Assembly: GCA_038062165.1 (NCBI GenBank)
Contig: JBBTXQ010000018.1
Span: 1-58,776, forward strand
From: Patescibacteria group bacterium
GTDB taxonomy: Bacteria > Patescibacteriota > Minisyncoccia > Phycocordibacterales > DATDSR01
Direction of reading: 5' to 3'
Length of the DNA stretch: 58,776 nt
A model generated the notes under the pieces. That model ran no database searches. It had not been told where the DNA came from and saw only the letters and a list, made by a program, of their open reading frames with translations. Shown here piece after piece: positions 2,998 to 58,475 of the stretch. The position numbers and the translations under genes were made by a program. The first letter of the stretch is position 1, and the number at the start of each line of letters is the position of its first letter.

Positions 2998-3382
2998 TGC
3001 AACTAAAGAAAAAGTTAGTTCTCCTAAAACAAAGAGGACTTCTAAGGCGACCAAGACAGCCGCGGCAAGTTCCGGCATTGGCAAACTGCGAATTAAAGTA
3101 AGCGCTTATGAGCATAAAGTTCTGGACATGAGTGTGCGACAAATCGTTGATACAGCTATCAGACACGAAGGCGAAGTACACGGACCAGTGCCACTGCCCA
3201 CAGAGATCACGCGCTACACAGTAAATAGGGGAGCATTCATAGACAAGAACTCGCGCGAGCAGTTCGAGATGCGAGTACACAAGAGAACACTCGATATCGT
3301 AAATCCTTCCGGAAAAATAATCGAAGCACTTACGAATATCGAACTGCCTTCCGGAGTTGGAATAGATCTGAAAATGATGTAG
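2990..3382 (+). CDS. rpsJ: 30S ribosomal protein S10 with a Lys-rich N-terminal extension of about 30 aa
   Basis: [14 protein letters not shown]...[32 protein letters not shown]. It overlaps the tuf stop by 8 nt. No alternative start lies nearer the conserved core. Confidence 0.9.
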
Positions 3383-4613: not shown

Positions 4614-4880
4614 ATGTCAGTTATCAAACGCCAATATCTCACGGAACGCTCTAGTCTTCTTTCAGAAAAAGGCATATATTCTTTCGTTGTCACAAGTGAG
4701 GCAAATAAAAGTGAAATTGCTAAGGCCTTAGAAACTAAATATAAAGTTAAGCCCATAAACGTGCGAGTAATTAATACCAAAGGCAAAGTTGTGGTCAGGG
4801 GTTACAAAAAGGGTCGCAAAGCGGGTATGCGCAAGGCTTATGTTAAATTTCCAGCCGGTACTAAAATAGAATCTGTTTAG
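4614..4880 (+). CDS. rplW: 50S ribosomal protein L23
   Basis: Size, position and KSEIAKALETKYKVKPINVRVIN match L23. Confidence 0.9.
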   Translation: MSVIKRQYLTERSSLLSEKGIYSFVVTSEANKSEIAKALETKYKVKPINVRVINTKGKVVVRGYKKGRKAGMRKAYVKFPAGTKIESV

Positions 4881-4904
4881 TTCGACTACGCTCACTATAA
4901 ATAA
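4878..4904 (+). promoter_or_regulatory. Conserved 27-nt intergenic motif TAGTTCGACTACGCTCACTATAAATAA, copy 1 of 3
   Basis: It begins with the rplW stop codon and ends 2 nt before the rplB ATG. Near-identical copies lie at 14027-14053 and 14444-14470. Confidence 0.5.
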
Positions 4905-5755: not shown

Positions 5756-5764
5756 TAATTGAGA

Positions 5765-5795
5765 AACGGCCCGACAATTGCCGGGCCGTTCTTTG
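5765..5795. terminator. Hairpin between rplB and the convergent orphan gene
   Basis: aacggcccg-acaattgc-cgggccgtt followed by cttt. Confidence 0.6.
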
Positions 5796-5810
5796 ATCGC
5801 GGGCGACGGG

Positions 5811-6095
5811 TCACATCCCCATCCCTCCGTAAGGGGGAGGGTGGTAGGGTGACCTATAGGCTTCCTCGTTGGCCTTCTTTATCGCTGCGGCAATCCGGAG
5901 CTGCTCGTCTTCTGGCAGTCCAGAGAACCACACCTCGAGCTCGCGCACTGCGCGCATGCCGAGGTAGACAAGGGCGACCCCGCCGAGAGCGAGAACAACC
6001 CAGAATCGCCACCAGCTCTCCACGTTGTAGAACGCCCCGGTAAGTGTCCCCACAGTTACCGCGGCGGCAAGCACGACGTAGCCGATTGTTCTCAT
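5811..6095 (-). CDS. Hypothetical small membrane protein (GC-rich orphan, 94 aa)
   Basis: Two hydrophobic helices (IGYVVLAAAVTVGTLTGAFY, FWVVLALGGVALVYLGM). A purine-rich SD-like AAGGGGG lies upstream. A hand count gives 35/60 G+C in 5811-5870. Confidence 0.55.
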   Translation of the reverse strand: MRTIGYVVLAAAVTVGTLTGAFYNVESWWRFWVVLALGGVALVYLGMRAVRELEVWFSGLPEDEQLRIAAAIKKANEEAYRSPYHPPPYGGMGM

Positions 6096-6448
6096 GACCT
6101 ATGGACCCCCTTCCCTTTCCAAACAGCTGCGCACCCGTTTGAGTATAACGCAACAGAGCCCTCGCTGGTAGTGAGAGCTCTGTCCAGCTTAGGGCATGGA
6201 TTAAGAAGTTCATATTTGTTGTGGATTGGTTGGTAATATCGATTTTCGCTTGACAGGTTATTTATTTGGGTATAGTCTAGATATACATGAATCGTTTTGT
6301 CATAACTTCCCGATCGATTTGCATTGAGACCTCAACTAAGATGTGGGGTATGTTTTCCCATTTCTATTTTAAACAACATATGCGCGGGTAATTAATACAT
6401 AAATTAGTAAGCAAGAACCCCGCGCAGAAATGTGTGGGGTTCTTCTTT

Positions 6449-6815
6449 TCCCGAGGGGAGGGATCATCAGTACTGATCTCCCCCCGGGGCAAGTGCTCTC
6501 ACGACACCAATTGGTGCGTGATAGGTCTTTGAGGCTAATCCCGACATTCTGTCGGGACGCCCGATCAAAAACACAGTTTTTGATTTAGGGAGGTCTTTAT
6601 GTGCGTGAGGCGTTGTGAGTTGCCGTGGGTGCCCGGTTCGTCTGACCCGTGTAGCATCCCGGAGCATCTCCGAGGCAGTGCCCCAAGCGAACCTGGCCCT
6701 GACTCCAGAGAGGAGGAGGTTTCCCGGCGTGAGGACGGGTTGTCTACACCCGGTCCAGCCTATTTCCCCGAGGGTGCTCTCTAGCTTCACCCCCTCCGAC
6801 ATCTGTCGGAGGGGC
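6449..6815. repeat. GC-rich cluster of local hairpins/palindromes (non-coding)
   Basis: Hairpins at about 6449-6489, 6500-6520, 6539-6558 (tcccgaca-ttc-tgtcggga), 6562-6586, 6734-6752 and 6789-6812 (cccctccgaca-tc-tgtcggagggg). The string tttccc(c)gaggg...gtgctctc recurs at both ends. Confidence 0.4.
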
Positions 6816-6858
6816 AACTTGCAAATTATTAGGTTAAGAGTAGTTTTATGGACATGAG

Positions 6859-6936
6859 TCCCGTTAGAAGCTTCGGGATTCACGCCACCATGCTACATAT
6901 TATCAACGCCAAATATAGTGTTAGCTTCTAACGGGA
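6859..6936 (+). repeat. Start-codon hairpin element, copy 1 (13-bp stem TCCCGTTAGAAGC / GCTTCTAACGGGA)
   Basis: Perfect 13-bp stem. The 3' arm ends on the A of the pepA ATG. ATGAG flanks both sides (6854-6858 and 6936-6940). Confidence 0.6.
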
Positions 6937-8294
6937 TGAGAATAATTAACAAAGACAAGTTAGGGAAAGGCCTGCCTGCCGGCAGGCAGGAGTACAAAAA
7001 GGCTGATTTTAAGGACGCAAATAGCTTGCGTAAATTTGTTTTGGCTGTACGCAAGGCTGTGGCTGATGCCAAGAAAGACAAGATGAAAAAAGTGGCAGTT
7101 ATCCTGAAAGAGATTCACAAGTTCGGGATTGGCGAGAGAGAATTGGGTGAGATAATTGCTCGCGAGGTACTGATTGCTGATTATGAATTTACTAAATACT
7201 TGAGCAAGCCAAAAGAGGGCTGGAGCTTTATTTCTGGATTTGCTCTTATCGGTAAAGTTAGTAAGGAGTTTAAGGTGGGAATTGAGAGGGGCAAAATAAT
7301 TGCGGGAGAAGTTAACATGACTCGCGAGCTGGCTAATACTCCGGGTGGCGAGATGGTTCCCAAGACTCTTGCCTTAGCCGCTCGAGAAGCAGTTAAAGAT
7401 TTGCCCAACACAAAAATAACAGTACTTGGCAAAAAGGAACTTGAGAAGCTGGGGATGGGAGCAGTGCTCGGTGTAGCCAAGGGCTCGCCAGAAGAGCCGC
7501 AATTTATTGTTGTGGAGTATCGCCCCCTAGCCCCCTCTTATGATAAGAGGGGGAACAAAGGGGGAGATATCGTTCTGGTTGGCAAAGGCGTGACCTTCGA
7601 TACTGGGGGACTCAATCTCAAGCCTACTGATGGCATTAACGACATGCACTTGGATATGTCCGGTGGTGCGGCTGTGATACACGCTGTTGCACTTGCTGCT
7701 AAACTTGGTGTGAAGAAAAATATAGTGGCGCTTGTGCCCGCGGTTGAGAACATGCCCGGAGGTTACTCATATAGACCCGGCGATATTCTTAAGTCGTTAT
7801 CTGGCAAAACTATTGAGATCAAAAATACTGATGCTGAAGGCAGAGTAATTCTCGCCGACGCTCTCACCTACGCCAAGAAGTTTAACCCAAGATTAGTTAT
7901 TGATGTCGCAACTCTAACTGGCGCGGCTTGTGTCGCCCTTGGCGAACGCGCCTCGGCTATCTTCACGCGTGATCAAGAGCTTGAAAAGTTGACGAGGGAA
8001 CTGGGAGAGAAGTCAGGCGATTATGTTTGGCCGATGCCCATGTGGGAAGAGTATGAGAGTGAAGTGAAGGGAACATTCGGCGATGTAGCTAATCTTGGCA
8101 AGAAGGGCAGGATGGGCGGAGCAATCTCGGGCGCAATGTTCTTACTGCAATTCACCAAAGATTACCCCAAAAGTACAAAGTGGATGCACATAGACATGGC
8201 CCCCACAATGACAGCTACAGACGACGAGTTTCTAGCCAAAGGAGCCAAAGGCAGTCCCGTCAAGCTCCTGCTTGCCTTGATTGAGAGTTACTGA
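6936..8294 (+). CDS. pepA: Leucyl aminopeptidase (M17 family)
   Basis: VLVGKGVTFDTGGLNLKP and NTDAEGRVILADAL M17 signatures. I prefer the ATG at 6936 over the GTG at 6918 because the same cttctaacgggATG junction precedes rplV and rplN. Confidence 0.9.
   Translation: MRIINKDKLGKGLPAGRQEYKKADFKDANSLRKFVLAVRKAVADAKKDKMKKVAVILKEIHKFGIGERELGEIIAREVLIADYEFTKYLSKPKEGWSFISGFALIGKVSKEFKVGIERGKIIAGEVNMTRELANTPGGEMVPKTLALAAREAVKDLPNTKITVLGKKELEKLGMGAVLGVAKGSPEEPQFIVVEYRPLAPSYDKRGNKGGDIVLVGKGVTFDTGGLNLKPTDGINDMHLDMSGGAAVIHAVALAAKLGVKKNIVALVPAVENMPGGYSYRPGDILKSLSGKTIEIKNTDAEGRVILADALTYAKKFNPRLVIDVATLTGAACVALGERASAIFTRDQELEKLTRELGEKSGDYVWPMPMWEEYESEVKGTFGDVANLGKKGRMGGAISGAMFLLQFTKDYPKSTKWMHIDMAPTMTATDDEFLAKGAKGSPVKLLLALIESY
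7518..7569. repeat. 52-nt nested palindromic element inserted in frame in pepA
   Basis: tatcgccccct-ag-CCCCCTCTTA-tg-ATAAGAGGGGGA-acaa-agggggagata. All four blocks (44 nt) are identical to recG 45293-45342. Confidence 0.7.
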
Positions 8295-8317
8295 AAGTTT
8301 GTAGAGAGACATTCGTC

Positions 8318-8548
8318 GTGTATAATATGAAAGTGAAAACACTTAACTGGACAAACGTAATAAAGAAATACAAGGGACTATGGGTTGGATTCAAGAACGA
8401 CAACAGGACCGTTATCGCTTCTGGTAGAACTCCAGCTGAAGTTATTAAGAAGGCAAAAAGTAGCGGATATGAAAATCCAATACTTTTCAGAGTGCCCAGC
8501 AGGCTAGTTGCCTTCGTTGGGATAATAGATGAAATTTCCATACGCTAA
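8318..8548 (+). CDS. DUF5678-like small protein (the ATG at 8327 is a possible start)
   Basis: KYKGLWVGFKNDNRTVIASGRTPAEVIKKAKSSGYENPILFRVP fits the KGKWVAI...a-helix...RVP pattern of DUF5678 proteins, as recalled from memory. Confidence 0.65.
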   Translation: MYNMKVKTLNWTNVIKKYKGLWVGFKNDNRTVIASGRTPAEVIKKAKSSGYENPILFRVPSRLVAFVGIIDEISIR

Positions 8549-8936
8549 ATTTGGTAGAGTTGGGAGTGAAATTATTAAACGCCCCGTTGTTCCAATTGAA
8601 GTTAAATTTGAAGATGAAACCGTCCTTTACGATGCCTTGATAGACTCCGGAGCGGATATTTGTATATTCGATGCTGCAATTGGCGAACAACTTGGTATCA
8701 ACATAATTTCTGGAATCCCAATTGTTTTTGGTGGAGCTGAATATTCCAAGGGTTCTGCGGCATATTTGCATCAAGTCAAAATAAAGATTAAAAATAAAGA
8801 AATAAAAACGCAAGTTGCCTTTACATACAACATCGCTAACCATGGTCATGGCCTTTTGGGGCAAAAAGGGTTTTTCGATAAATTTGCAATCAAATTTGAT
8901 TATTCCAATGATGTTGTAGATATTAGTTCCAGATAA
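8529..8936 (+). CDS. Retropepsin-like (clan AA) aspartic protease
   Basis: Catalytic LIDSGAD motif plus downstream GLLGQKGFF. 135 aa. It overlaps the preceding small gene by 20 nt. Confidence 0.75.
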   Translation: MKFPYAKFGRVGSEIIKRPVVPIEVKFEDETVLYDALIDSGADICIFDAAIGEQLGINIISGIPIVFGGAEYSKGSAAYLHQVKIKIKNKEIKTQVAFTYNIANHGHGLLGQKGFFDKFAIKFDYSNDVVDISSR

Positions 8937-8939
8937 AAT

Positions 8940-8990
8940 ACCAAAGGCAGCCCGGTCAAACTCCTACTTACCATCATTGAGAACTTTTAG
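8940..8990 (+). pseudogene. Displaced duplicate of the pepA 3' end
   Basis: It translates to TKGSPVKLLLTIIENF* against the pepA C-terminus AKGSPVKLLLALIESY* (8244-8294). Several of the nucleotide differences are synonymous. Confidence 0.6.
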
Positions 8991-9033
8991 GCCTTTTTTT
9001 GAAAAGAAATTAGCCCGCGATGTTTGGTCGGGG

Positions 9034-9288
9034 CTAAAGGTTCCCGGTCTCGTCTTTGATTTTCTCCATTATTCGCACTGGAATCGCATTTTCCTTAAGA
9101 CAGTCACACTTATCAAGTTGTGTGCCAGCAAGTTTGCTGGCATGTGGTAATTGCCATTCCATATTAAGCGTTTGGCGGTCTCTAATTCGCAACAAAGGCA
9201 AGTGCCTTACGCCGTTGCAAACGATGTAGTGATAGCACTCACCGGCCTGATAAGCTAGGAATACCCGTATTTCCGAATTTCCTTCCAT
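9034..9288 (-). CDS. Hypothetical protein (orphan, 84 aa)
   Basis: aaGAGGAGGAGGT lies immediately upstream of the ATG. A hairpin and T-run follow the stop. I recognise no family. Confidence 0.5.
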   Translation of the reverse strand: MEGNSEIRVFLAYQAGECYHYIVCNGVRHLPLLRIRDRQTLNMEWQLPHASKLAGTQLDKCDCLKENAIPVRIMEKIKDETGNL

Positions 9289-9319
9289 ACCTCCTCCTCT
9301 TGTTCAAGTATACACTCTC

Positions 9320-9348
9320 TTGCGTGGTAATTGCTTGCGTGATAGGAT
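9320..9348 (+). promoter_or_regulatory. Candidate promoter restarting rpsS transcription
   Basis: TTGCGT, 17-nt spacer, TAGGAT, with TG 1 nt upstream of the -10 box. The same gtgaTAGGATa box occurs at 13747-13752 upstream of rpsZ. Confidence 0.4.
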
Positions 9349-9395
9349 AGCCTTCGTCCCGCGTAGCCTTGTGCGAAGTGGGACTCACGTCTATT

Positions 9396-9740: not shown

Positions 9741-9760
9741 GAAGTAATAAGTAATATGAA

Positions 9761-9841
9761 TCCCATTAGAAGTATGTCTCAATTAAGTCACTGCGATATG
9801 TCAGGCGTATATACAATTAACGTAAGTAACTTCTAACGGGA
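9761..9841 (+). repeat. Start-codon hairpin element, copy 2
   Basis: TCCCATTAGAAGT...ACTTCTAACGGGA. ATGAA flanks both sides (9756-9760 and 9841-9845). A uORF runs 9756-9836. Confidence 0.6.
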
Positions 9842-10173
9842 TGAAAGCGAGTTTAAACAATTATAGGCAAGCTCCACGAAAAGTCAGATTAGTAACAGAT
9901 CTTATTAAGGGCAAGAGCGTAGAGAAAGCCAAAACAGAACTTGCGCATCTCTCTAAACGCGCTTCTACGCCTATTCTTAAACTTTTAAATTCAGCGATTG
10001 CTAACTCAAATTTAAATTTAAATGAGAGTGATAAAAATAACTTGTTTATAAAAAGTATTAGCGTAGACAAAGGGATTGTCTTGAAAAGGAGTATGCCACG
10101 CGCTCATGGTCGCGCATTTCCAATACACAAGCACACGTCGCACATCAAGTTAGAATTAGCCAGAAAATCATGA
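9841..10173 (+). CDS. rplV: 50S ribosomal protein L22
   Basis: NYRQAPRKVRLVTDLIKGKSVEKA...MPRAHGRAFPIHKHTSHI. Confidence 0.9.
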   Translation: MKASLNNYRQAPRKVRLVTDLIKGKSVEKAKTELAHLSKRASTPILKLLNSAIANSNLNLNESDKNNLFIKSISVDKGIVLKRSMPRAHGRAFPIHKHTSHIKLELARKS

Positions 10174-10529
10174 GTCATACAGTACATCCATACGCACATA
10201 GATTAGGAATTTTGCGAGACTGGAAGAGTCGCTGGTTCGTGGCGCGCATCAAGAAGCCTCTTTACAGACAGAATTTGAAAGCCGATGTGATGTTGCGCGA
10301 GACACTTGAAAAAGAGTTGCGTGCTTTCCTTGTTGATTCTATCGAAATTGAAAGAGGAGAGAATTATTTGAGAGTGATAGTGAAAACTGCCAGACCGGGT
10401 TTGATAATTGGTCGCTCCGGTGAAGGTTCAAATAAGCTCAAAGAGACTATTGTAAAAAGATTAAGAAAGTTAGGCGCCAATATTCCAAGAGATGTGCGTT
10501 TGCAGATTGAAGAGGTGCGCTCTCCCTAG
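10170..10529 (+). CDS. rpsC: 30S ribosomal protein S3, N-terminal (KH) part, ending at an in-frame TAG
   Basis: VHPYAHRLGILRDWKSRWF...ARPGLIIGRSGEGSNKL...QIEEVRSP then TAG at 10527-10529. Confidence 0.85.
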   Translation: MSHTVHPYAHRLGILRDWKSRWFVARIKKPLYRQNLKADVMLRETLEKELRAFLVDSIEIERGENYLRVIVKTARPGLIIGRSGEGSNKLKETIVKRLRKLGANIPRDVRLQIEEVRSP

Positions 10530-10544
10530 AGTCATGCCCAAATT

Positions 10545-10865
10545 GTGGCGCACATGATTGAAGAGGCCATAGAAAAGCGCACACCATTTAGACGCACTCT
10601 CAAACAGAGTATTGAGAAGATTATGGCTAATAAAGACGTTAAGGGAGTGAAGATTACACTTTCGGGTAGACTGGACGGTTCAGAAATGGGTCGGGTTGAG
10701 TCGCTCATGAAGGGGCGTTTGCCATTGCAAACTCTGCGAGCCGATATTGACTTCGCAAAGGGCCGAGCTCGCATGCCTTACGGAGATATTGGCATAAAGG
10801 TTTGGATTTATAGGGGAGAGATATTTGCTGAAACGCAAAACGCAAAACGCAAAACGCAAAATTAA
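10545..10865 (+). CDS. rpsC: 30S ribosomal protein S3, C-terminal part (same frame as 10170-10529)
   Basis: IEEAIEKRTPFRRTLKQSI...GVKITLSGRLDGSEMGR...LPLQTLRADIDFAKGRA...GIKVWIY. GTG 10545 and ATG 10554 are the only possible restarts. Confidence 0.85.
   Translation: MAHMIEEAIEKRTPFRRTLKQSIEKIMANKDVKGVKITLSGRLDGSEMGRVESLMKGRLPLQTLRADIDFAKGRARMPYGDIGIKVWIYRGEIFAETQNAKRKTQN
10834..10861 (+). repeat. Heptanucleotide tandem repeat (CGCAAAA x4)
   Basis: Four perfect 7-nt units in the last codons of rpsC, 6 nt upstream of the rplP ATG. Confidence 0.8.
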
Positions 10866-11304: not shown

Positions 11305-11541
11305 ATGGAAGACACAAAAACAAAACATAAAATGTCTGGGATAGTAGTGGGAGACAAAATGAACAAGACTCGAGTCGTTTCTGTTGAACGTTTCGCTAAG
11401 CATCCCAAATACGGCAAGTTCATTCACACCAGTAAAAAGTACAAAGCTCACGATGAAACTAACTCAACCCATGTTGGTGATAAAGTGACTATAGAAGAAT
11501 GCCGGCCTATCTCACGCGATAAGCATTTCAGAATTGTATAA
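11305..11541 (+). CDS. rpsQ: 30S ribosomal protein S17
   Basis: [29 protein letters not shown]...[21 protein letters not shown]. It follows rplP after 12 nt, leaving no room for rpmC. Confidence 0.9.
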
Positions 11542-11621
11542 TCCCATTAGAAGTATAGTTATATAATGTCAATAAACATGTCAAATTTACACACAATTAA
11601 CGTAAGTAACTTCTAACGGGA
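11542..11621 (+). repeat. Start-codon hairpin element, copy 3
   Basis: It has the same arms as copy 2 and the shared internal block ACAATTAACGTAAGTAACTTCTAACGGG. It starts right after the rpsQ TAA and ends on the A of the rplN ATG. Confidence 0.6.
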
Positions 11622-11989
11622 TGATTCAACCACGAGCAATAGTAAAAATAGCTGACAACACCGGAGCCAAAATTGGGCGTATTTTCAAAGTGCTCGGCGG
11701 TTCTAAACGCAGATACGCTCGCGTAGGCGATTTGGTTGTGCTATCTGTCCAAACAGCCGAACCTCGTAAGATGGCCAAGAAGAAGGAAGTGCATAGGGCC
11801 GTGGTTGTGAGGCAAAGGGCCAACATGCGCCGTTCTGACGGATCTTATATCAGGTTTGATGAGAATGCAGTTGTGCTAGTTGACGTTAAGAATGAACCTA
11901 AAGGAGCACGTGTTTTCGGTCCTGTGCCTAGAGAGTTAACAGAAATGGGATTCCAGAAGATAGCCTCACTTGCGCCAGAGATTGTATAA
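11621..11989 (+). CDS. rplN: 50S ribosomal protein L14
   Basis: [17 protein letters not shown]...[10 protein letters not shown]. Confidence 0.95.
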
Positions 11990-12780: not shown

Positions 12781-12813
12781 TCTACTATAATTTTTACAGA
12801 GGAGGACCCGGCC

Positions 12814-13017
12814 ATGTCTCTCCGATTTGCTGTGGAAATTCCAGAACCAACGCCCCGCAATGTGGTTACGACCACCCAGATGAAATGTGGTCATGTCCAC
12901 GAATGTCTGGGTGATGCCCATCAGGCGATCTGTGGTGCGTATGTATGCCGTGCTCATGATTACGTTCATCGCTTCTGCACGGCTACGTACTGCGTTGCCA
13001 GGATCCCCCAGACATAG
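12814..13017 (+). CDS. Hypothetical Cys/His-rich small protein (orphan, 67 aa)
   Basis: GAGGAGGA lies 7 nt upstream of the ATG, and the gene has its own terminator at 13045-13075. A hand count gives 31/60 G+C in 12814-12873 against 25/60 in rplX 12001-12060. Confidence 0.5.
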   Translation: MSLRFAVEIPEPTPRNVVTTTQMKCGHVHECLGDAHQAICGAYVCRAHDYVHRFCTATYCVARIPQT

Positions 13018-13044
13018 CGCGCAACACACTCACTCCAGCATGCC

Positions 13045-13075
13045 CCCGTAGCGGTTCGCCGCTACGGGTTTTTTA
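13045..13075 (+). terminator. Rho-independent terminator
   Basis: cccgtagcgg-ttcg-ccgctacggg followed by tttttt. Confidence 0.75.
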
Positions 13076-13120
13076 TTCACGCAAATTATGGTATAACCGA
13101 AGAAGGAGGATCTCCATAAA

Positions 13121-13324
13121 ATGAGAACCAGAACTCGCGGCAAATGGAAGTGCGGTGGAGTCTGCAAACGGATGCTAGAATCAAGTGACGTTCGCAATCT
13201 AACGAAATGCGGCAAGACAGTCTGTAACGACTGTTTCCCACGCCACAAGATCTGTCAGAGAGGCAAGTGCATGGCCGGTTCGCAAGCGGCCAGCCACGGC
13301 CACGAAAACGCCACCGGCGACTAG
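13121..13324 (+). CDS. Hypothetical Cys-rich (zinc-ribbon-like) small protein (orphan, 67 aa)
   Basis: AAGGAGGA upstream. CGGVC...C..C and CNDC...C pairs. A hairpin aatgttcgagcc-ccg-gcctcgaacatt follows the stop. Confidence 0.5.
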   Translation: MRTRTRGKWKCGGVCKRMLESSDVRNLTKCGKTVCNDCFPRHKICQRGKCMAGSQAASHGHENATGD

Positions 13325-13391
13325 CCACCCAAAATGTTCGAGCCCCGGCCTCGAACATTTCCCCGTGCGGGTAGGAAGAAAGGAGAACTAG

Positions 13392-13628
13392 ATGACTCCA
13401 GAGGAAAGTCAGGCTTTACGAGATAGGGCCCTCCAGTTGTTCGCGGAAAAGAGAAATATGGATGCCGACGATCTTTCTAACAGGCTTGGTCAGACCAGTC
13501 ACGTTGCTCTGGTTGTAATCAAGCAATTGGAGAAAGATAATTTTGTTCGCGTCTCGCCCAAGCAACCCGGCGAGCATCATCCAGACGAGTTAAGTCAGTA
13601 CAGTGTAGTCTACGGAATCTCGCTTTAG
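13392..13628 (+). CDS. Hypothetical small protein, possibly winged-helix (orphan, 78 aa)
   Basis: AAAGGAG lies 6 nt upstream of the ATG. A hairpin ccccgtagtaa-gcttcgc-ttactacgggg follows the stop. Confidence 0.55.
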   Translation: MTPEESQALRDRALQLFAEKRNMDADDLSNRLGQTSHVALVVIKQLEKDNFVRVSPKQPGEHHPDELSQYSVVYGISL

Positions 13629-13683
13629 GTTTCACTTCTTTACCCCGTAGTAAGCTTCGCTTTACTACGGGGTTGCTCTTTTT

Positions 13684-13741
13684 GGGCTAAATCCGCCTCT
13701 GGCGGATCGCCCGAACATTACTTTTGCAATGTTTTAGGGGG
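13684..13741 (+). repeat. Two-hairpin GGGCTAAATC...AATGTTTTAGGGG element, copy a
   Basis: gggctaaATCCGCCtctGGCGGATcgcccgAACATTacttttgcAATGTTttagggg. It is homologous to 28101-28165, and both stems carry compensatory changes. Confidence 0.55.
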
Positions 13742-13752
13742 TGTGATAGGAT
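13724..13752 (+). promoter_or_regulatory. Candidate promoter restarting rpsZ/spc transcription
   Basis: TTGCAA, 17-nt spacer, TAGGAT, with the same gtgaTAGGATa box as at 9343-9348. Confidence 0.35.
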
Positions 13753-13843
13753 AAAGGGGTTCTAAGAATAGTCTCGCTAGACTGCCTGGCAGGTCCGGGT
13801 AAGTGGCGGGACCAAAATTATTCTTCAATTTCATTCAGAACAA

Positions 13844-14029
13844 GTGGCAAAAAAGAGCACAATTGCACGGTCGAAACGGACGCCTAAGTACAAAAGTCGC
13901 GTGGTGCGACGTTGTTTCAGATGCGGCCGCAAACGCGCTTATATGCGTGACTTTGACATGTGTAGGATATGTTTCCGCGAGGCGGCAAATGAAGGACGTA
14001 TCCCCGGCATTAGAAAAGCATCGTGGTAG
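13844..14029 (+). CDS. rpsZ: 30S ribosomal protein S14, type Z (zinc-binding); GTG start
   Basis: MAKKSTIARSKRTPKYKSRVVRRCFRCGRKRAYMRDFDMCRICFRE; 61 aa with CxxC...CxxC. Confidence 0.9.
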   Translation: MAKKSTIARSKRTPKYKSRVVRRCFRCGRKRAYMRDFDMCRICFREAANEGRIPGIRKASW

Positions 14030-14053
14030 TTCGACTGCGCTCACTATAAATAA
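14027..14053 (+). promoter_or_regulatory. Conserved 27-nt intergenic motif, copy 2
   Basis: TAGTTCGACTGCGCTCACTATAAATAA. It starts at the rpsZ stop codon, and the rpsH ATG follows 3 nt later. Confidence 0.5.
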
Positions 14054-14056
14054 ACT

Positions 14057-14446
14057 ATGGATCAAATTTCTGACATGTTAATTAGAATCAAGAATGCCGG
14101 TAGCGCCCGGCAGGATTCTACAATTGTGCCTTATTCTAAACTTAAGTTTGAGATTGCGAATGTTCTATTGAGTGAAAGTTATATCAAATCTTTTTCGGTT
14201 AAAGGTAAAAAAGTACGCAAGCACATAGAAGTAGAAATTGCTTATCGAGACGATGGCTCTGTTCGCATAACTGATGTTAATCGCATTTCTAAATTATCAA
14301 GACGCGTTTATCTTGGTGCTAAAGATATCAGACCCGTTAAACAGGGCACTGGCCTGCTCGTGCTCTCTACCCCCAAGGGTATCCTGTCAGGCAGAGATGC
14401 CCGCAAGCAGATGGTCGGAGGTGAAGCGTTATTTAGTATCTGGTAG
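14057..14446 (+). CDS. rpsH: 30S ribosomal protein S8
   Basis: DQISDMLIRIKNAGSAR...GTGLLVLSTPKGILSGRDARK. Confidence 0.95.
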   Translation: MDQISDMLIRIKNAGSARQDSTIVPYSKLKFEIANVLLSESYIKSFSVKGKKVRKHIEVEIAYRDDGSVRITDVNRISKLSRRVYLGAKDIRPVKQGTGLLVLSTPKGILSGRDARKQMVGGEALFSIW

Positions 14447-14470
14447 TTCGACTACGCTCACTATAAATAA
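14444..14470 (+). promoter_or_regulatory. Conserved 27-nt intergenic motif, copy 3
   Basis: TAGTTCGACTACGCTCACTATAAATAA. It starts at the rpsH stop codon, and the rplF ATG follows 2 nt later. Confidence 0.5.
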
Positions 14471-19654: not shown

Positions 19655-19822
19655 AGGACTACTTATTGCCAACTAGCTGCCACGTTCAGGGCTCGCCCGT
19701 TAATAAATAGTCGCAGGTTCTCTACACGAGACCGCGCAGGGTGCCCACCTAGTGATTTGCTAGGTTCTGGCTTATAAGTAGCCCTAAGCAAGCCGCCACC
19801 GCAAGGTGGTTGTTTGCTTTTC
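19655..19822 (+). ncRNA. Candidate structured sRNA: a roughly 130-nt rod-like hairpin plus a terminator
   Basis: TTGACA at 19620-19625 with an A/T-rich -10 region. AGGACUACUUAU (19655-66) pairs with AUAAGUAGCCCU (19774-85). Further inward pairings are CUAGC/GCUAG, CAC/GUG, GGGC/GCCC and an apical GGUUCUC/GAGACC. A hairpin with a T-run lies at 19786-19822. Confidence 0.3.
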
Positions 19823-19842
19823 GTGCTATTATTTACTAGCAA

Positions 19843-21229: not shown

Positions 21230-21265
21230 AATGATGAAATGTTAAAATTTGCAATTTGCAAACAA
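21230..21265 (+). repeat. Left 36-bp terminal inverted repeat of a 1.07-kb two-gene element
   Basis: aatgatgaaatgttaaaatttgcaatttgcaaacaa matches the reverse complement of 22268-22303 at 35 of 36 positions. Confidence 0.8.
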
Positions 21266-21288: not shown

Positions 21289-21816
21289 GTGCAAATGGGC
21301 AATTTGAAAACAATGAACGAAATGAAAAAATTGCAGAAACAAAATGTTGGCAACGCCGGGGAATATTACATAGCCGCTAGACTTTCGGCGCTCGATTTTA
21401 CAGCAACTATCACACTTGGGCGAGCTGAAAAATACGATATACTGGCGCTAAGTCCAACAGGTAGATTGGTAAAAATTTCCGTTAAGACAACTCAGATTAA
21501 CAATGCGACCAATTTTCCTTTGTCAGCCAAGGATGAGAAAGGTGAGGCGGATGATTTTTATTACGTATTCGTAAAGCTTTACAATTTTGGCAAAGAGCCC
21601 GACTTCTGGGTCATACCAAGCATAGTGGTTTGCCCAATTGTGAAACAATCTGACGAGATTTGGCTAAAAACTCCCGGAAGAAATAACTCGGAACATAAAA
21701 TGACGACAATGAGAATATTGCCGATTGAAACAAGAGGAGGAGAAGTACAACTGTTTCCAAGAAACTGGAACGAGGAAATTAAGAAATATTATAAAAACCT
21801 AGATCAATTATTATAG
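21289..21816 (+). CDS. Hypothetical protein, PD-(D/E)xK (Hjc/restriction-endonuclease-like) fold suspected
   Basis: GNAGEYYIAARL...EKYDILALSPTGRLVKISVKT fits an E...D...(S/E)xK nuclease core. The start is uncertain (GTG 21289 or ATG 21295). Confidence 0.55.
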   Translation: MQMGNLKTMNEMKKLQKQNVGNAGEYYIAARLSALDFTATITLGRAEKYDILALSPTGRLVKISVKTTQINNATNFPLSAKDEKGEADDFYYVFVKLYNFGKEPDFWVIPSIVVCPIVKQSDEIWLKTPGRNNSEHKMTTMRILPIETRGGEVQLFPRNWNEEIKKYYKNLDQLL

Positions 21817-21822
21817 CCTCCA

Positions 21823-22194
21823 ATGACCTATGATTTGGAAGAACGTACCAGGAAGTTTAGCAAGGCGGTGATTGAATGTTTGCGGAGTTTGCCGAAAGAT
21901 CAGATTAATCTCCCGCTCGTGAGTCAGTGTGTGCGGGCCGCTACTAGTGTTGGTGCGAATTATCGAGAGGCGAATGCTGCCAGTTCAAAAAAGGACTTTA
22001 AGAACAAGATTGCTATTTGTCGCAAAGAAATTCGTGAGACAAAATATTGGTTTGAACTCTTGTCTGACGCAAATCCTAAGGAAAAGGTAACACTAGACAA
22101 ATTATATGACGAAGCCCGTCAACTTGATTTAATCTTCAATAAAATCTATAGTTCTGTAGGTGGATTTGAGAGATTTGATAATCCACCTAAATGA
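21823..22194 (+). CDS. Four-helix-bundle protein (23S rRNA intervening-sequence protein / Avd-like family)
   Basis: DLEERTRKFSKAVIECLRSLP...CVRAATSVGANYREANAASSKKDFKNKIAICRKEIRETKYWFELL is typical of the TIGR02436-type family, as recalled from memory. Confidence 0.8.
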   Translation: MTYDLEERTRKFSKAVIECLRSLPKDQINLPLVSQCVRAATSVGANYREANAASSKKDFKNKIAICRKEIRETKYWFELLSDANPKEKVTLDKLYDEARQLDLIFNKIYSSVGGFERFDNPPK

Positions 22195-27839: not shown

Positions 27840-28169
27840 ATGATGATTTTCACCGTCTATATTCTCTACTCAGCAAAGACGCGAACTCTATATGTTGGAT
27901 GTACATCTGATCTAGACAATAGGCTTAATAAGCATTTTCGAGGAGAAGTTTTTTCAACCAAAAACAAAAGGCCACTATCCTTGATTCATCAGGAATTATT
28001 CAAGGACAAGGGGAAAGCATTTCAACGAGAAAGATTCCTAAAAAGCCTTTGGGGCGCAAGAGAGAAGAAAAAAATATTGACTAATTACCTATCTGTTTTA
28101 GGGCTAAATCAATCGCTTTGCGATTGGTCGCCCGAACATTGCGACATGTCGCAATGTTTTAGGGGATGA
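27840..28169 (+). CDS. GIY-YIG nuclease family small protein; the 3' tail reads into a repeat and the tmRNA 5' end
   Basis: FTVYILYSAKTRTLYVGCTSDLDNRLNKH...RERFLKSLWGAREKKKIL. The last 20 or so codons translate the repeat at 28101-28165. Confidence 0.7.
   Translation: MMIFTVYILYSAKTRTLYVGCTSDLDNRLNKHFRGEVFSTKNKRPLSLIHQELFKDKGKAFQRERFLKSLWGAREKKKILTNYLSVLGLNQSLCDWSPEHCDMSQCFRG
28101..28165 (+). repeat. Two-hairpin GGGCTAAATC...AATGTTTTAGGGG element, copy b
   Basis: gggctaaatCAATCGCtttGCGATTGgtcgcccgAACATTGCGACAtGTCGCAATGTTttagggg. Its terminal GGGG is the first 4 nt of the tmRNA. Confidence 0.55.
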
Positions 28170-28558
28170 TCGGCCTAGACATAGATCGTGCACTTTGTGC
28201 GCAAGTCGTGAGAGTATGTGTCACGCTAATCACACATGCAAAAGTTACCTGCAAAGGAAACTAATGGGGAGCAGGGTTCATTTGTGGCTAGTCCATTTAT
28301 GTTCTCTGCTTTCGCGCTCGCTTAAGTCGAGCGCCATTCTATCCGCAAGAAGCTTCGGTAACGGATAGGGTGTAACCACAGGAGCTAGCCCAGCCCTTAA
28401 CTTCAAGGGCTGGGTGAAATAAAGAAGTTATACTGTGAGCGCTTTCGTTTATCTTCTATACTCACAGCGAAATCCGCCAGCTGGCGGAAAGATAAACTAA
28501 ACTTGTAGATCCACTCTCTGCATTTCTATGCACGGCGGTTCGATTCCGCCCATCTCCA
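28162..28558 (+). ncRNA. ssrA: tmRNA (SsrA)
   Basis: The 5' GGGGATG pairs with the 3' CATCTCC and includes a G3:U70 pair. T-arm GGCGGTTCGATTCCGCC. The tag ORF ends ...FSAFALA-TAA (stop 28323-28325), with a possible resume codon GCA at 28251. A terminator lies at 28617-28645. smpB is 1.7 kb upstream. Confidence 0.8.
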
Positions 28559-28708: not shown

Positions 28709-28912
28709 ATGTACTTCGTTTACATGCTCAAAAATAGTTTCAATGATTTATACACCGGCATAACCGAAAACCCAACAGAACGCCTGAACTATCACAACTC
28801 AAAGCTGGGTGCACGGTTTACAAAAAACAAGCAAGCTTTTAATATTGTCTTTCTTGAGCAACACCAAACTCTTGCTGAAGCCCGCAAACGCGAAATCCAA
28901 ATCAAGAAGTAG
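28709..28912 (+). CDS. GIY-YIG nuclease family small protein, ending at a TAG that occupies a conserved Trp position (homology continues to 28981)
   Basis: MYFVYMLKNSFNDLYTGITENPTERLNYHN...ARKREIQIKK-TAG-RREKKELLIERY. TATACT lies 7 nt upstream of the ATG. Confidence 0.65.
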   Translation: MYFVYMLKNSFNDLYTGITENPTERLNYHNSKLGARFTKNKQAFNIVFLEQHQTLAEARKREIQIKK

Positions 28913-29084
28913 CGCAGGGAAAAGAAGGAGCTGTTGATCGAAAGATACTCCAGAGGTTTGCCTACCAAGCAACGGTGTTAATATATTATTCGCGACCGAT
29001 TACGCCCATCTCTTTCAATACGGAGGCTTAGCCTCCACAAGATAAGTTCTAGACACGATCATCTGTTGGCACTACAATTAAGCC

Positions 29085-32574: not shown

Positions 32575-32811
32575 ATGTTTTACGTTTACATACTTAAAGA
32601 CGAGACAGGTAGAAAGTACATTGGTTGCACTTTTGATTTAAAAAATCGTATAGCTGAACATAACGCAGGAGAAACAAAATCGACTAAAAATCGTGGGCGT
32701 CAATCTTTAGTCTGGTACGGTTGTTTTCCTAGCAGGAAGTTAGCTTATGATTTTGAAAGTTACCTTAAATCCAGCTCCGGCCACGCTTTCACCCGCAAAC
32801 ATTTAATCTAA
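32575..32811 (+). CDS. GIY-YIG nuclease family small protein
   Basis: MFYVYILKDETGRKYIGCTFDLKNRIAEHNAGETKSTK. Confidence 0.75.
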   Translation: MFYVYILKDETGRKYIGCTFDLKNRIAEHNAGETKSTKNRGRQSLVWYGCFPSRKLAYDFESYLKSSSGHAFTRKHLI

Positions 32812-40746: not shown

Positions 40747-40819
40747 GGGCGTGTAGCTCAGTTGGTAGAGCGTTCGTCTTATACACGGAGGGTTCTTGGT
40801 TCGAGTCCAAGCGGGTGGA
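40747..40819 (+). pseudogene. tRNA-Ile(UAU)-like gene with a non-complementary acceptor stem
   Basis: The D-arm, anticodon arm (TTCGT-CTTATAC-ACGGA) and T-arm (CTTGG-TTCGAGT-CCAAG) all fold. However, the 5' GGGCGTG faces the 3' CGGGTGG, giving 3 mismatches. Its first 25 nt are identical to the tRNA at 43315. Confidence 0.5.
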
Positions 40820-43126: not shown

Positions 43127-43314
43127 AGTGAGTATCCCGAACTCCATGGGCTACCTATTCGACAATTTCGTAGGCCGTATATTAAGAAAGCTACGTTTAA
43201 ATCACTTACTTACAAGGGAGGTTTTGGTCACGGTACCCGTAATGTTATGATTAGCAACGCGGGTTTGATGAGGAAGATTATGATGGGGTTACAGGTGTTG
43301 AAAGATCACTTTAT

Positions 43315-43387
43315 GGGCGTGTAGCTCAGTTGGTAGAGCACGGAGCTTATACCTCCGCGGTCCCTGGTTCGAGCCCAGGCACGCCCA
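43315..43387 (+). tRNA. tRNA-Ile, anticodon UAU
   Basis: 73-nt cloverleaf: GGGCGTG/CACGCCC acceptor, GCTC-AGTTGGTA-GAGC, CGGAG-CTTATAC-CTCCG, CCTGG-TTCGAGC-CCAGG. CCA is not encoded. Confidence 0.85.
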
Positions 43388-43412
43388 TTAGCCAAACTCG
43401 GACTCTTTTTTG

Positions 43413-58115: not shown

Positions 58116-58475
58116 ATGTCTAACCCCGCCAAAATTATCATGGTTTTAGTCGCACTTTTGTTGGCTTTTGTCGGCTTCAACTATTTGAAGGGAGACGAAG
58201 AGTCTTCGCCCACAACCGGTCTTGTGCGAGAGAACTTCGATTCTAGTGTTGGAGGAGGGGATAATAGCGAATTTTTGCGAGTACTCAAGAATCTTGAAAG
58301 TGTTTCGCTCGATGGCTCATTCCTTTCCACAGAAGCTTTCACCAACCTCATTGATTTTAGTCTCGAGCTTACTCCTGAACCAGTGGGCCGACCTAACCCC
58401 TTTAGGCCAATCAATCTTTTAGAGCGTGATTTAGCCACATTTCAAAATGCCTCAAGCACAGGAACCTCGCAGTGA
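58116..58475 (+). CDS. Hypothetical membrane-anchored protein in the pilus cluster
   Basis: TM helix IIMVLVALLLAFVGF. Context only. Confidence 0.4.
   Translation: MSNPAKIIMVLVALLLAFVGFNYLKGDEESSPTTGLVRENFDSSVGGGDNSEFLRVLKNLESVSLDGSFLSTEAFTNLIDFSLELTPEPVGRPNPFRPINLLERDLATFQNASSTGTSQ

Follow-up and report, generated by a model that had tools for sequence, protein, structure and literature searches.

An in-frame TAG in the ribosomal protein S3 gene confined to a single metagenome contig

In Gracilibacteria and Absconditabacteria, genetic code 25 assigns UGA to Gly, and UAG is decoded elsewhere as pyrrolysine. To our knowledge, the only ribosomal protein S3 that is split is that of ciliate mitochondria, encoded by rps3_a and rps3_b. 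The halves of this protein are specified by separate genes at distant loci, an arrangement conserved across species (PMC3318907). The rpsC gene described here lies in a contig of 58,776 bp that was analysed over its whole length (hereafter the window). With bacterial stop reassignment, the locus shares the occurrence of an in-frame stop at a conserved sense position in a CPR bacterium. With the ciliate genes, it would share the division of S3 into an N-terminal part and a C-terminal domain.

The interrupted rpsC reading frame

The gene for 30S ribosomal protein S3 occupies positions 10170–10865 of the forward strand and comprises 231 codons, from ATG at 10170 to TAA at 10863–10865. Codon 120 is a TAG (10527–10529) in this contig only. 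The surrounding codons read GAA GAG GTG CGC TCT CCC TAG AGT CAT GCC CAA ATT GTG. The 119 codons before the TAG match the KH_2 domain of S3 (Pfam PF07650, E = 1.3e-12; residues 42–119, positions 10293–10526), while the 111 codons after it match the Ribosomal_S3_C domain (PF00189, E = 6.4e-28; residues 129–212 of the full protein, positions 10557–10808). A KH_2 match on the 5' side and an S3_C match on the 3' side place the TAG in the inter-domain linker. The original prediction, that the codon splits S3 between its KH and C-terminal domains and that both halves are good S3 sequence, is thus confirmed by the reading frame and the Pfam matches. In the S10-spc operon the gene is flanked by rplV and rplP, the order being rpsS-rplV-rpsC-rplP-rpsQ. 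With both domains and these neighbors it is a bacterial uS3 gene.

A search of 5.8 billion proteins returned as best matches only full-length Candidatus Paceibacterota proteins of 225–236 aa, with identities of 88% or lower. In an alignment with full-length Paceibacterota S3 sequences (60–85% identity), the residue replaced by the TAG is Glu in 36 of 37 and Asp in the remaining one, and all 37 continue through this position without interruption. The stop had been proposed to occupy a Glu position one base removed from GAG, and the homologues bear this out, as do the siblings, which read GAG. The C-terminal tails of S3 are highly variable among relatives. At the 3' end of rpsC in the window, a short tandem repeat, (AAACGC)n at 10831–10855, encodes ..QNAKRKTQN and overlaps the region upstream of rplP.

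The base at position 10527 in other runs and assemblies

The window was compared with Logan contigs of public groundwater-metagenome runs from two studies and with independent assemblies. All of these are assembled contigs rather than raw reads, and Logan contigs drop rare variants. Words of the window were present in five runs at 99% (X3), 97% (X1), 90% (X2), 73% (X4) and 65% (X5). Logan contigs from X1 (669 nt), X2 (278 nt) and X4 (163 nt) have G at position 10527, and in each of them this base is the sole difference from the window. The X5 contig has G at 10527 too, so that the four runs reading G come from both studies. In X3, the best-matching run, no contig extends over 10520–10833, and the depth of the contig next to this gap is 4.3. 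No indexed run matched a 61-mer spanning the T, as judged by two sampled index words.

Three independent assemblies were found by exact-protein look-up, using the neighboring L22 and the Glu version of S3. In ENA assembly Hain_H51_01um_R3 (1.5 kb, coverage 3.6), rpsC is identical at 617 of 618 bases, the one difference being G at 10527. ENA assembly Hain_H51_01um_R2 (11.9 kb, coverage 5.3) also has G at this position, as does the 89-kb contig CAYIWS010000001.1 of the NCBI MAG GCA_964367285.1. The MAG contig differs from the window at only four of 19,654 bases (1337, 2802, 3210 and 10527). Exact look-up in a collection of 15 billion proteins recorded the intact 231-aa Glu form of S3 on this 89-kb contig, and the 119-aa and 103/106-aa pieces of S3 on the 58,776-bp contig only, that is, on the window itself.

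The T at 10527 is confined to one contig, every other covering source having G, and the rpsC gene of the organism is intact, with GAG encoding Glu120. As the T is seen only here and the others read GAG, an error or an allele that is rare and unfixed very probably accounts for it, rather than a split gene or recoding. No special translation mechanism is involved, whichever of the two it is. A sense codon at 10527 had been named in advance as the mark of an error, and GAG was indeed found, at the level of contigs and not of reads, in four runs and three assemblies. The comparison of rpsC among siblings, likewise proposed, gave GAG at this codon in all three assemblies. Among the three options that the original prediction had listed, a sequencing or assembly error is therefore favored, alongside a rare unfixed variant, while a naturally split gene and readthrough gained no support.

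Further features of the window were noted. An insertion of about 3.6 kb (5756–9368) lies inside the S10 operon between rplB and rpsS, and the layout is the same in the MAG and in Hain_H51_01um_R2. It contains an M17 leucyl aminopeptidase gene (6918–8294), followed by an ORF of 135 aa resembling Asp_protease_2 (8529–8936). Its GC-rich stretch of about 1.1 kb (5756–6900) has no Pfam-bearing ORF and gave only sub-threshold matches when searched with Rfam at E ≤ 1 and by folding. A second insertion of about 1 kb (12781–13780), between rplE and rpsZ, contains three short ORFs with no Pfam match, given as 67, 67 and 78 aa by the gene calls of the MAG. Eight clustered SNVs at 13429–13457 in this insertion distinguish Hain_H51_01um_R2 from the window. 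In the MAG contig, a 100-N scaffold gap (19655–19754) stands where the window has 18 real bases (19824–19841).

No SD motif precedes any of the ribosomal protein genes. The sequence TAGTTCGACTaCGCTCACTATAAATAA is repeated upstream of rplB, rpsH and rplF (4855–4904, 14004–14053 and 14421–14470), and an element of about 85 nt ending in ACAATTAACGTAAGTAACTTCTAACGGG is repeated upstream of rplV and rplN (9759–9844 and 11540–11624). These intergenic repeats may act as common signals for translation or processing. Farther downstream, 21265 is connected directly to 22268 in one X1 contig, which thereby lacks 1002 nt with two ORFs (21289–21816 and 21823–22194). Direct repeats of 27 nt, AAATTTGCAATTTGCAAACAATGATTT, border the skipped segment at 21245 and 22204. 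A presence/absence cassette is one possibility; another is that the X1 contig comes from a related genome.

A probable base error and a possible minority allele

Relative to every covering run, the whole window has five bases that are private to this contig. At 1337 the window has T and the others C; this site has no annotated gene on the forward strand and falls inside an unannotated minus-strand ORF (1183–1617). At 2802 (G in the window, A in the others) the change is synonymous, for Gln in tuf. At 3210 (C, others A) it gives Thr versus Lys in S10, at 10527 (T, others G) a stop versus Glu in S3, and at 58326 (T, others G) Ser versus Ala in a hypothetical protein. Two of the five, 10527 and 58326, are thus a T where the others read G, and four of the five are counted in the first 10.5 kb. 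Random single-base changes in the coding sequence of the window create a stop in 4.2% of cases. With five private bases the probability of at least one stop is 0.19, and one stop among them is therefore statistically unremarkable.

On balance, we lean toward a low-coverage base error rather than a real rare allele as the origin of the TAG. The organism, a member of Candidatus Paceibacterota (CPR) from the groundwater of Hainich well H51, has an ordinary, uninterrupted rpsC carrying GAG (Glu120). The T would be a wrong base left uncorrected in a single-sample metaSPAdes contig of low coverage, fixed there by one or two reads in a local trough. The hole in the X3 contigs at 10520–10833 points to such a trough, in a run that otherwise shows zero differences over 20–40 kb. 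SPAdes coverage of the sibling contigs is 3.6–5.9, a value that describes the siblings and not the library of the window itself. In the source study, each replicate filter was assembled separately with metaSPAdes v3.13 from NextSeq 2x150 reads, and triplicate samples were taken from well H51 on one occasion (PMC8672522). The sibling assemblies are thus replicate samples of one population, and wherever another assembly or run of the strain covers the site, the T is missing. Moreover, a fixed nonsense allele is a priori unlikely, given that S3 is a universal ribosomal protein and that all 37 homologues have Glu or Asp at this position.

Alternatively, the T could be a rare but genuine nonsense SNV of a minority strain in one replicate, the assembler having taken that path while the majority rpsC is intact. 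Such an allele would be deleterious or transient, not an adaptation. We hold this reading to be possible, if tentative, and several observations weigh for it and against an error. Contigs of X3 stop at 1336 and 3209, exactly one base before the private sites 1337 and 3210. Breaks of this kind are the signature of a real graph branch and suggest that both alleles were present in the reads, with strain heterogeneity at these sites, so that some of the contig-private bases may be true strain variants. The synonymous base at 2802 looks like a natural polymorphism, and the Thr/Lys change in S10 appears conservative. That the first 10.5 kb contain four of the five contig-private bases is expected of a linked haplotype, and a minority haplotype of this kind accounts for it better than errors scattered along the contig would. 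Together, the branch breaks, the synonymous base and the clustering may reflect a minority haplotype coexisting in the X3 sample. T-bearing reads could also be missed in Logan contigs, because these drop rare variants.

Nevertheless, X3 does not break cleanly at 10527: its contig stops at 10519, ahead of a hole of about 310 nt. The two sampled T-bearing words occur in no indexed run, and the replicate filters taken from the same well on the same date lack the allele. A nonsense mutation in the single-copy essential rpsC should also face strong negative selection. A low-coverage base error remains our preferred reading.

TAG codons in the window and comparison with known systems

A second in-frame TAG is found at 28910–28912 in a GIY-YIG nuclease-family gene (28709–28981, forward strand), in place of Trp68, which is invariant in this family of about 88 aa. 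The 22 codons 3' of it still match the family consensus. The status of this TAG rests on Logan contigs, and those of X1, X3, X7 and X8, from two studies, cover it with zero differences. Its recurrence in four runs identifies it as a genuine nonsense mutation, TGG having become TAG, that is fixed in the population and lies in a dispensable gene. At least three GIY-YIG copies are present in the window (27840–28169, 28709–28981 and 32575–32811; PF01541), and ordinary pseudogenisation explains the TAG. The interrupted copy is located just 3' of the tmRNA gene (28162–28558), and the copy at 27840–28169 is on the 5' side of the tmRNA. The original prediction had drawn attention to this second TAG at a conserved residue. 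Its presence at such a residue is verified, but it does not corroborate a TAG phenomenon: although reproducible, it replaces Trp and not Glu, in a small multi-copy gene that tolerates nonsense. With different residues replaced, the two TAGs do not point to one decoding rule.

TAG is otherwise used as a terminator. In a greedy, non-overlapping set of 88 ORFs, 37 end in TAA, 29 in TAG and 22 in TGA, and the TAG-terminated ORFs include ones of 1518, 867, 817 and 633 aa. TAG also ends fusA, tuf, rpsJ, rplW, rplB, rplE, rpsZ and rpsH, whose last residues we take to be the usual C-termini of their families. The earlier statement that TAG is a normal stop, made from fusA, tuf, rplB, rpsZ and rpsH, is borne out by these counts. 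The proposed search for a suppressor tRNA found none with a CUA anticodon in the 58.8-kb window, where tRNA-Ile(UAU), tRNA-Ser(GCU), tmRNA and a second, tRNA-like element with a UAU anticodon were seen. The tRNA-Ile(UAU) lies at 43314–43388 and the tRNA-like element, a paralogue of 76% identity, at 40747–40813. The acceptor stem of the latter is unpaired, ARAGORN missed it, and its Rfam tRNA match covers only model positions 6–65.

With the second TAG in view, one might imagine that a co-occurring strain truly carries the T at 10527 and makes S3 as two polypeptides by reinitiation, or through low-level near-cognate readthrough of UAG. The GIY-YIG TAG would then be further evidence that UAG termination is leaky in this CPR lineage. 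We regard this combination as very unlikely. A T allele that truly existed and was tolerated would constitute the first case in bacteria of an S3 divided at the linker between the KH and C-terminal domains; nothing found supports that.

Still less probable is a naturally split S3 in which the KH half ends at the TAG, the C-terminal half restarts at GTG 10545 or ATG 10554 (10545–10556, forward strand), and both halves join the 30S subunit. The TAG coincides exactly with the linker that joins the two Pfam domains, in-frame start codons follow 16–25 nt downstream, and the split rps3 of ciliate mitochondria provides a precedent (PMC3318907). However, the candidate restart codons are ordinary sense codons in all homologues, where they encode the conserved Val and Met of ..AQIVAHMIEE.., and a restart would remove the conserved residues E120–V126. 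The interruption is absent from every other covering assembly and run of the strain, no other split S3 occurs among close relatives, and the split is thus conserved across neither strains nor species. No SD motif precedes GTG 10545 or ATG 10554, which is uninformative because no ribosomal protein gene of the operon has one.

Readthrough of TAG, by a suppressor tRNA-CUA, by reassignment or in a context-dependent manner, would yield full-length products of both rpsC and the GIY-YIG gene and has in its favor two in-frame TAGs at conserved positions within 58.8 kb, the second of them stable in four runs and followed by family-like codons; it is as improbable as a split gene, since TAG terminates a third of the ORFs (29/88), only two in-frame TAGs occur and these replace different residues, no tRNA-CUA is present in the window, and the UAG of rpsC is conserved neither in siblings (GAG) nor in homologues (Glu/Asp). 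Because the rpsC TAG is irreproducible, a single TAG is left to explain, in a redundant GIY-YIG gene.

Both a split gene and readthrough presuppose a TAG that belongs to the lineage as such, and the one in rpsC does not. A single exact-protein look-up and a single contig overlay were enough to decide the case. When a low-coverage metagenome contig shows an in-frame stop in an essential gene, sibling assemblies should be consulted before a split gene or recoding is invoked.

Against the known systems, the locus compares as follows. Unlike the ciliate rps3_a and rps3_b, the two halves of S3 are contiguous here, with one codon between them, and the interruption is absent from siblings. Unlike bacterial stop reassignments, all three stop codons terminate genes at conserved C-termini, and no tRNA-CUA was seen in the window. 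The GIY-YIG gene, with its truncated product of 67 aa, conforms to nonsense pseudogenisation of a redundant gene, with TGG changed to TAG at an invariant Trp, paralogues present and the change fixed across four runs, and no departure from that pattern was noted. For the rpsC TAG, no feature sets it apart from the errors and strain SNVs of low-coverage, short-read metagenome contigs. Like these, it is a single-base difference in one per-sample assembly at about 4–8x depth, located in a stretch that the best-matching run left unassembled and contradicted by all other assemblies that cover it.
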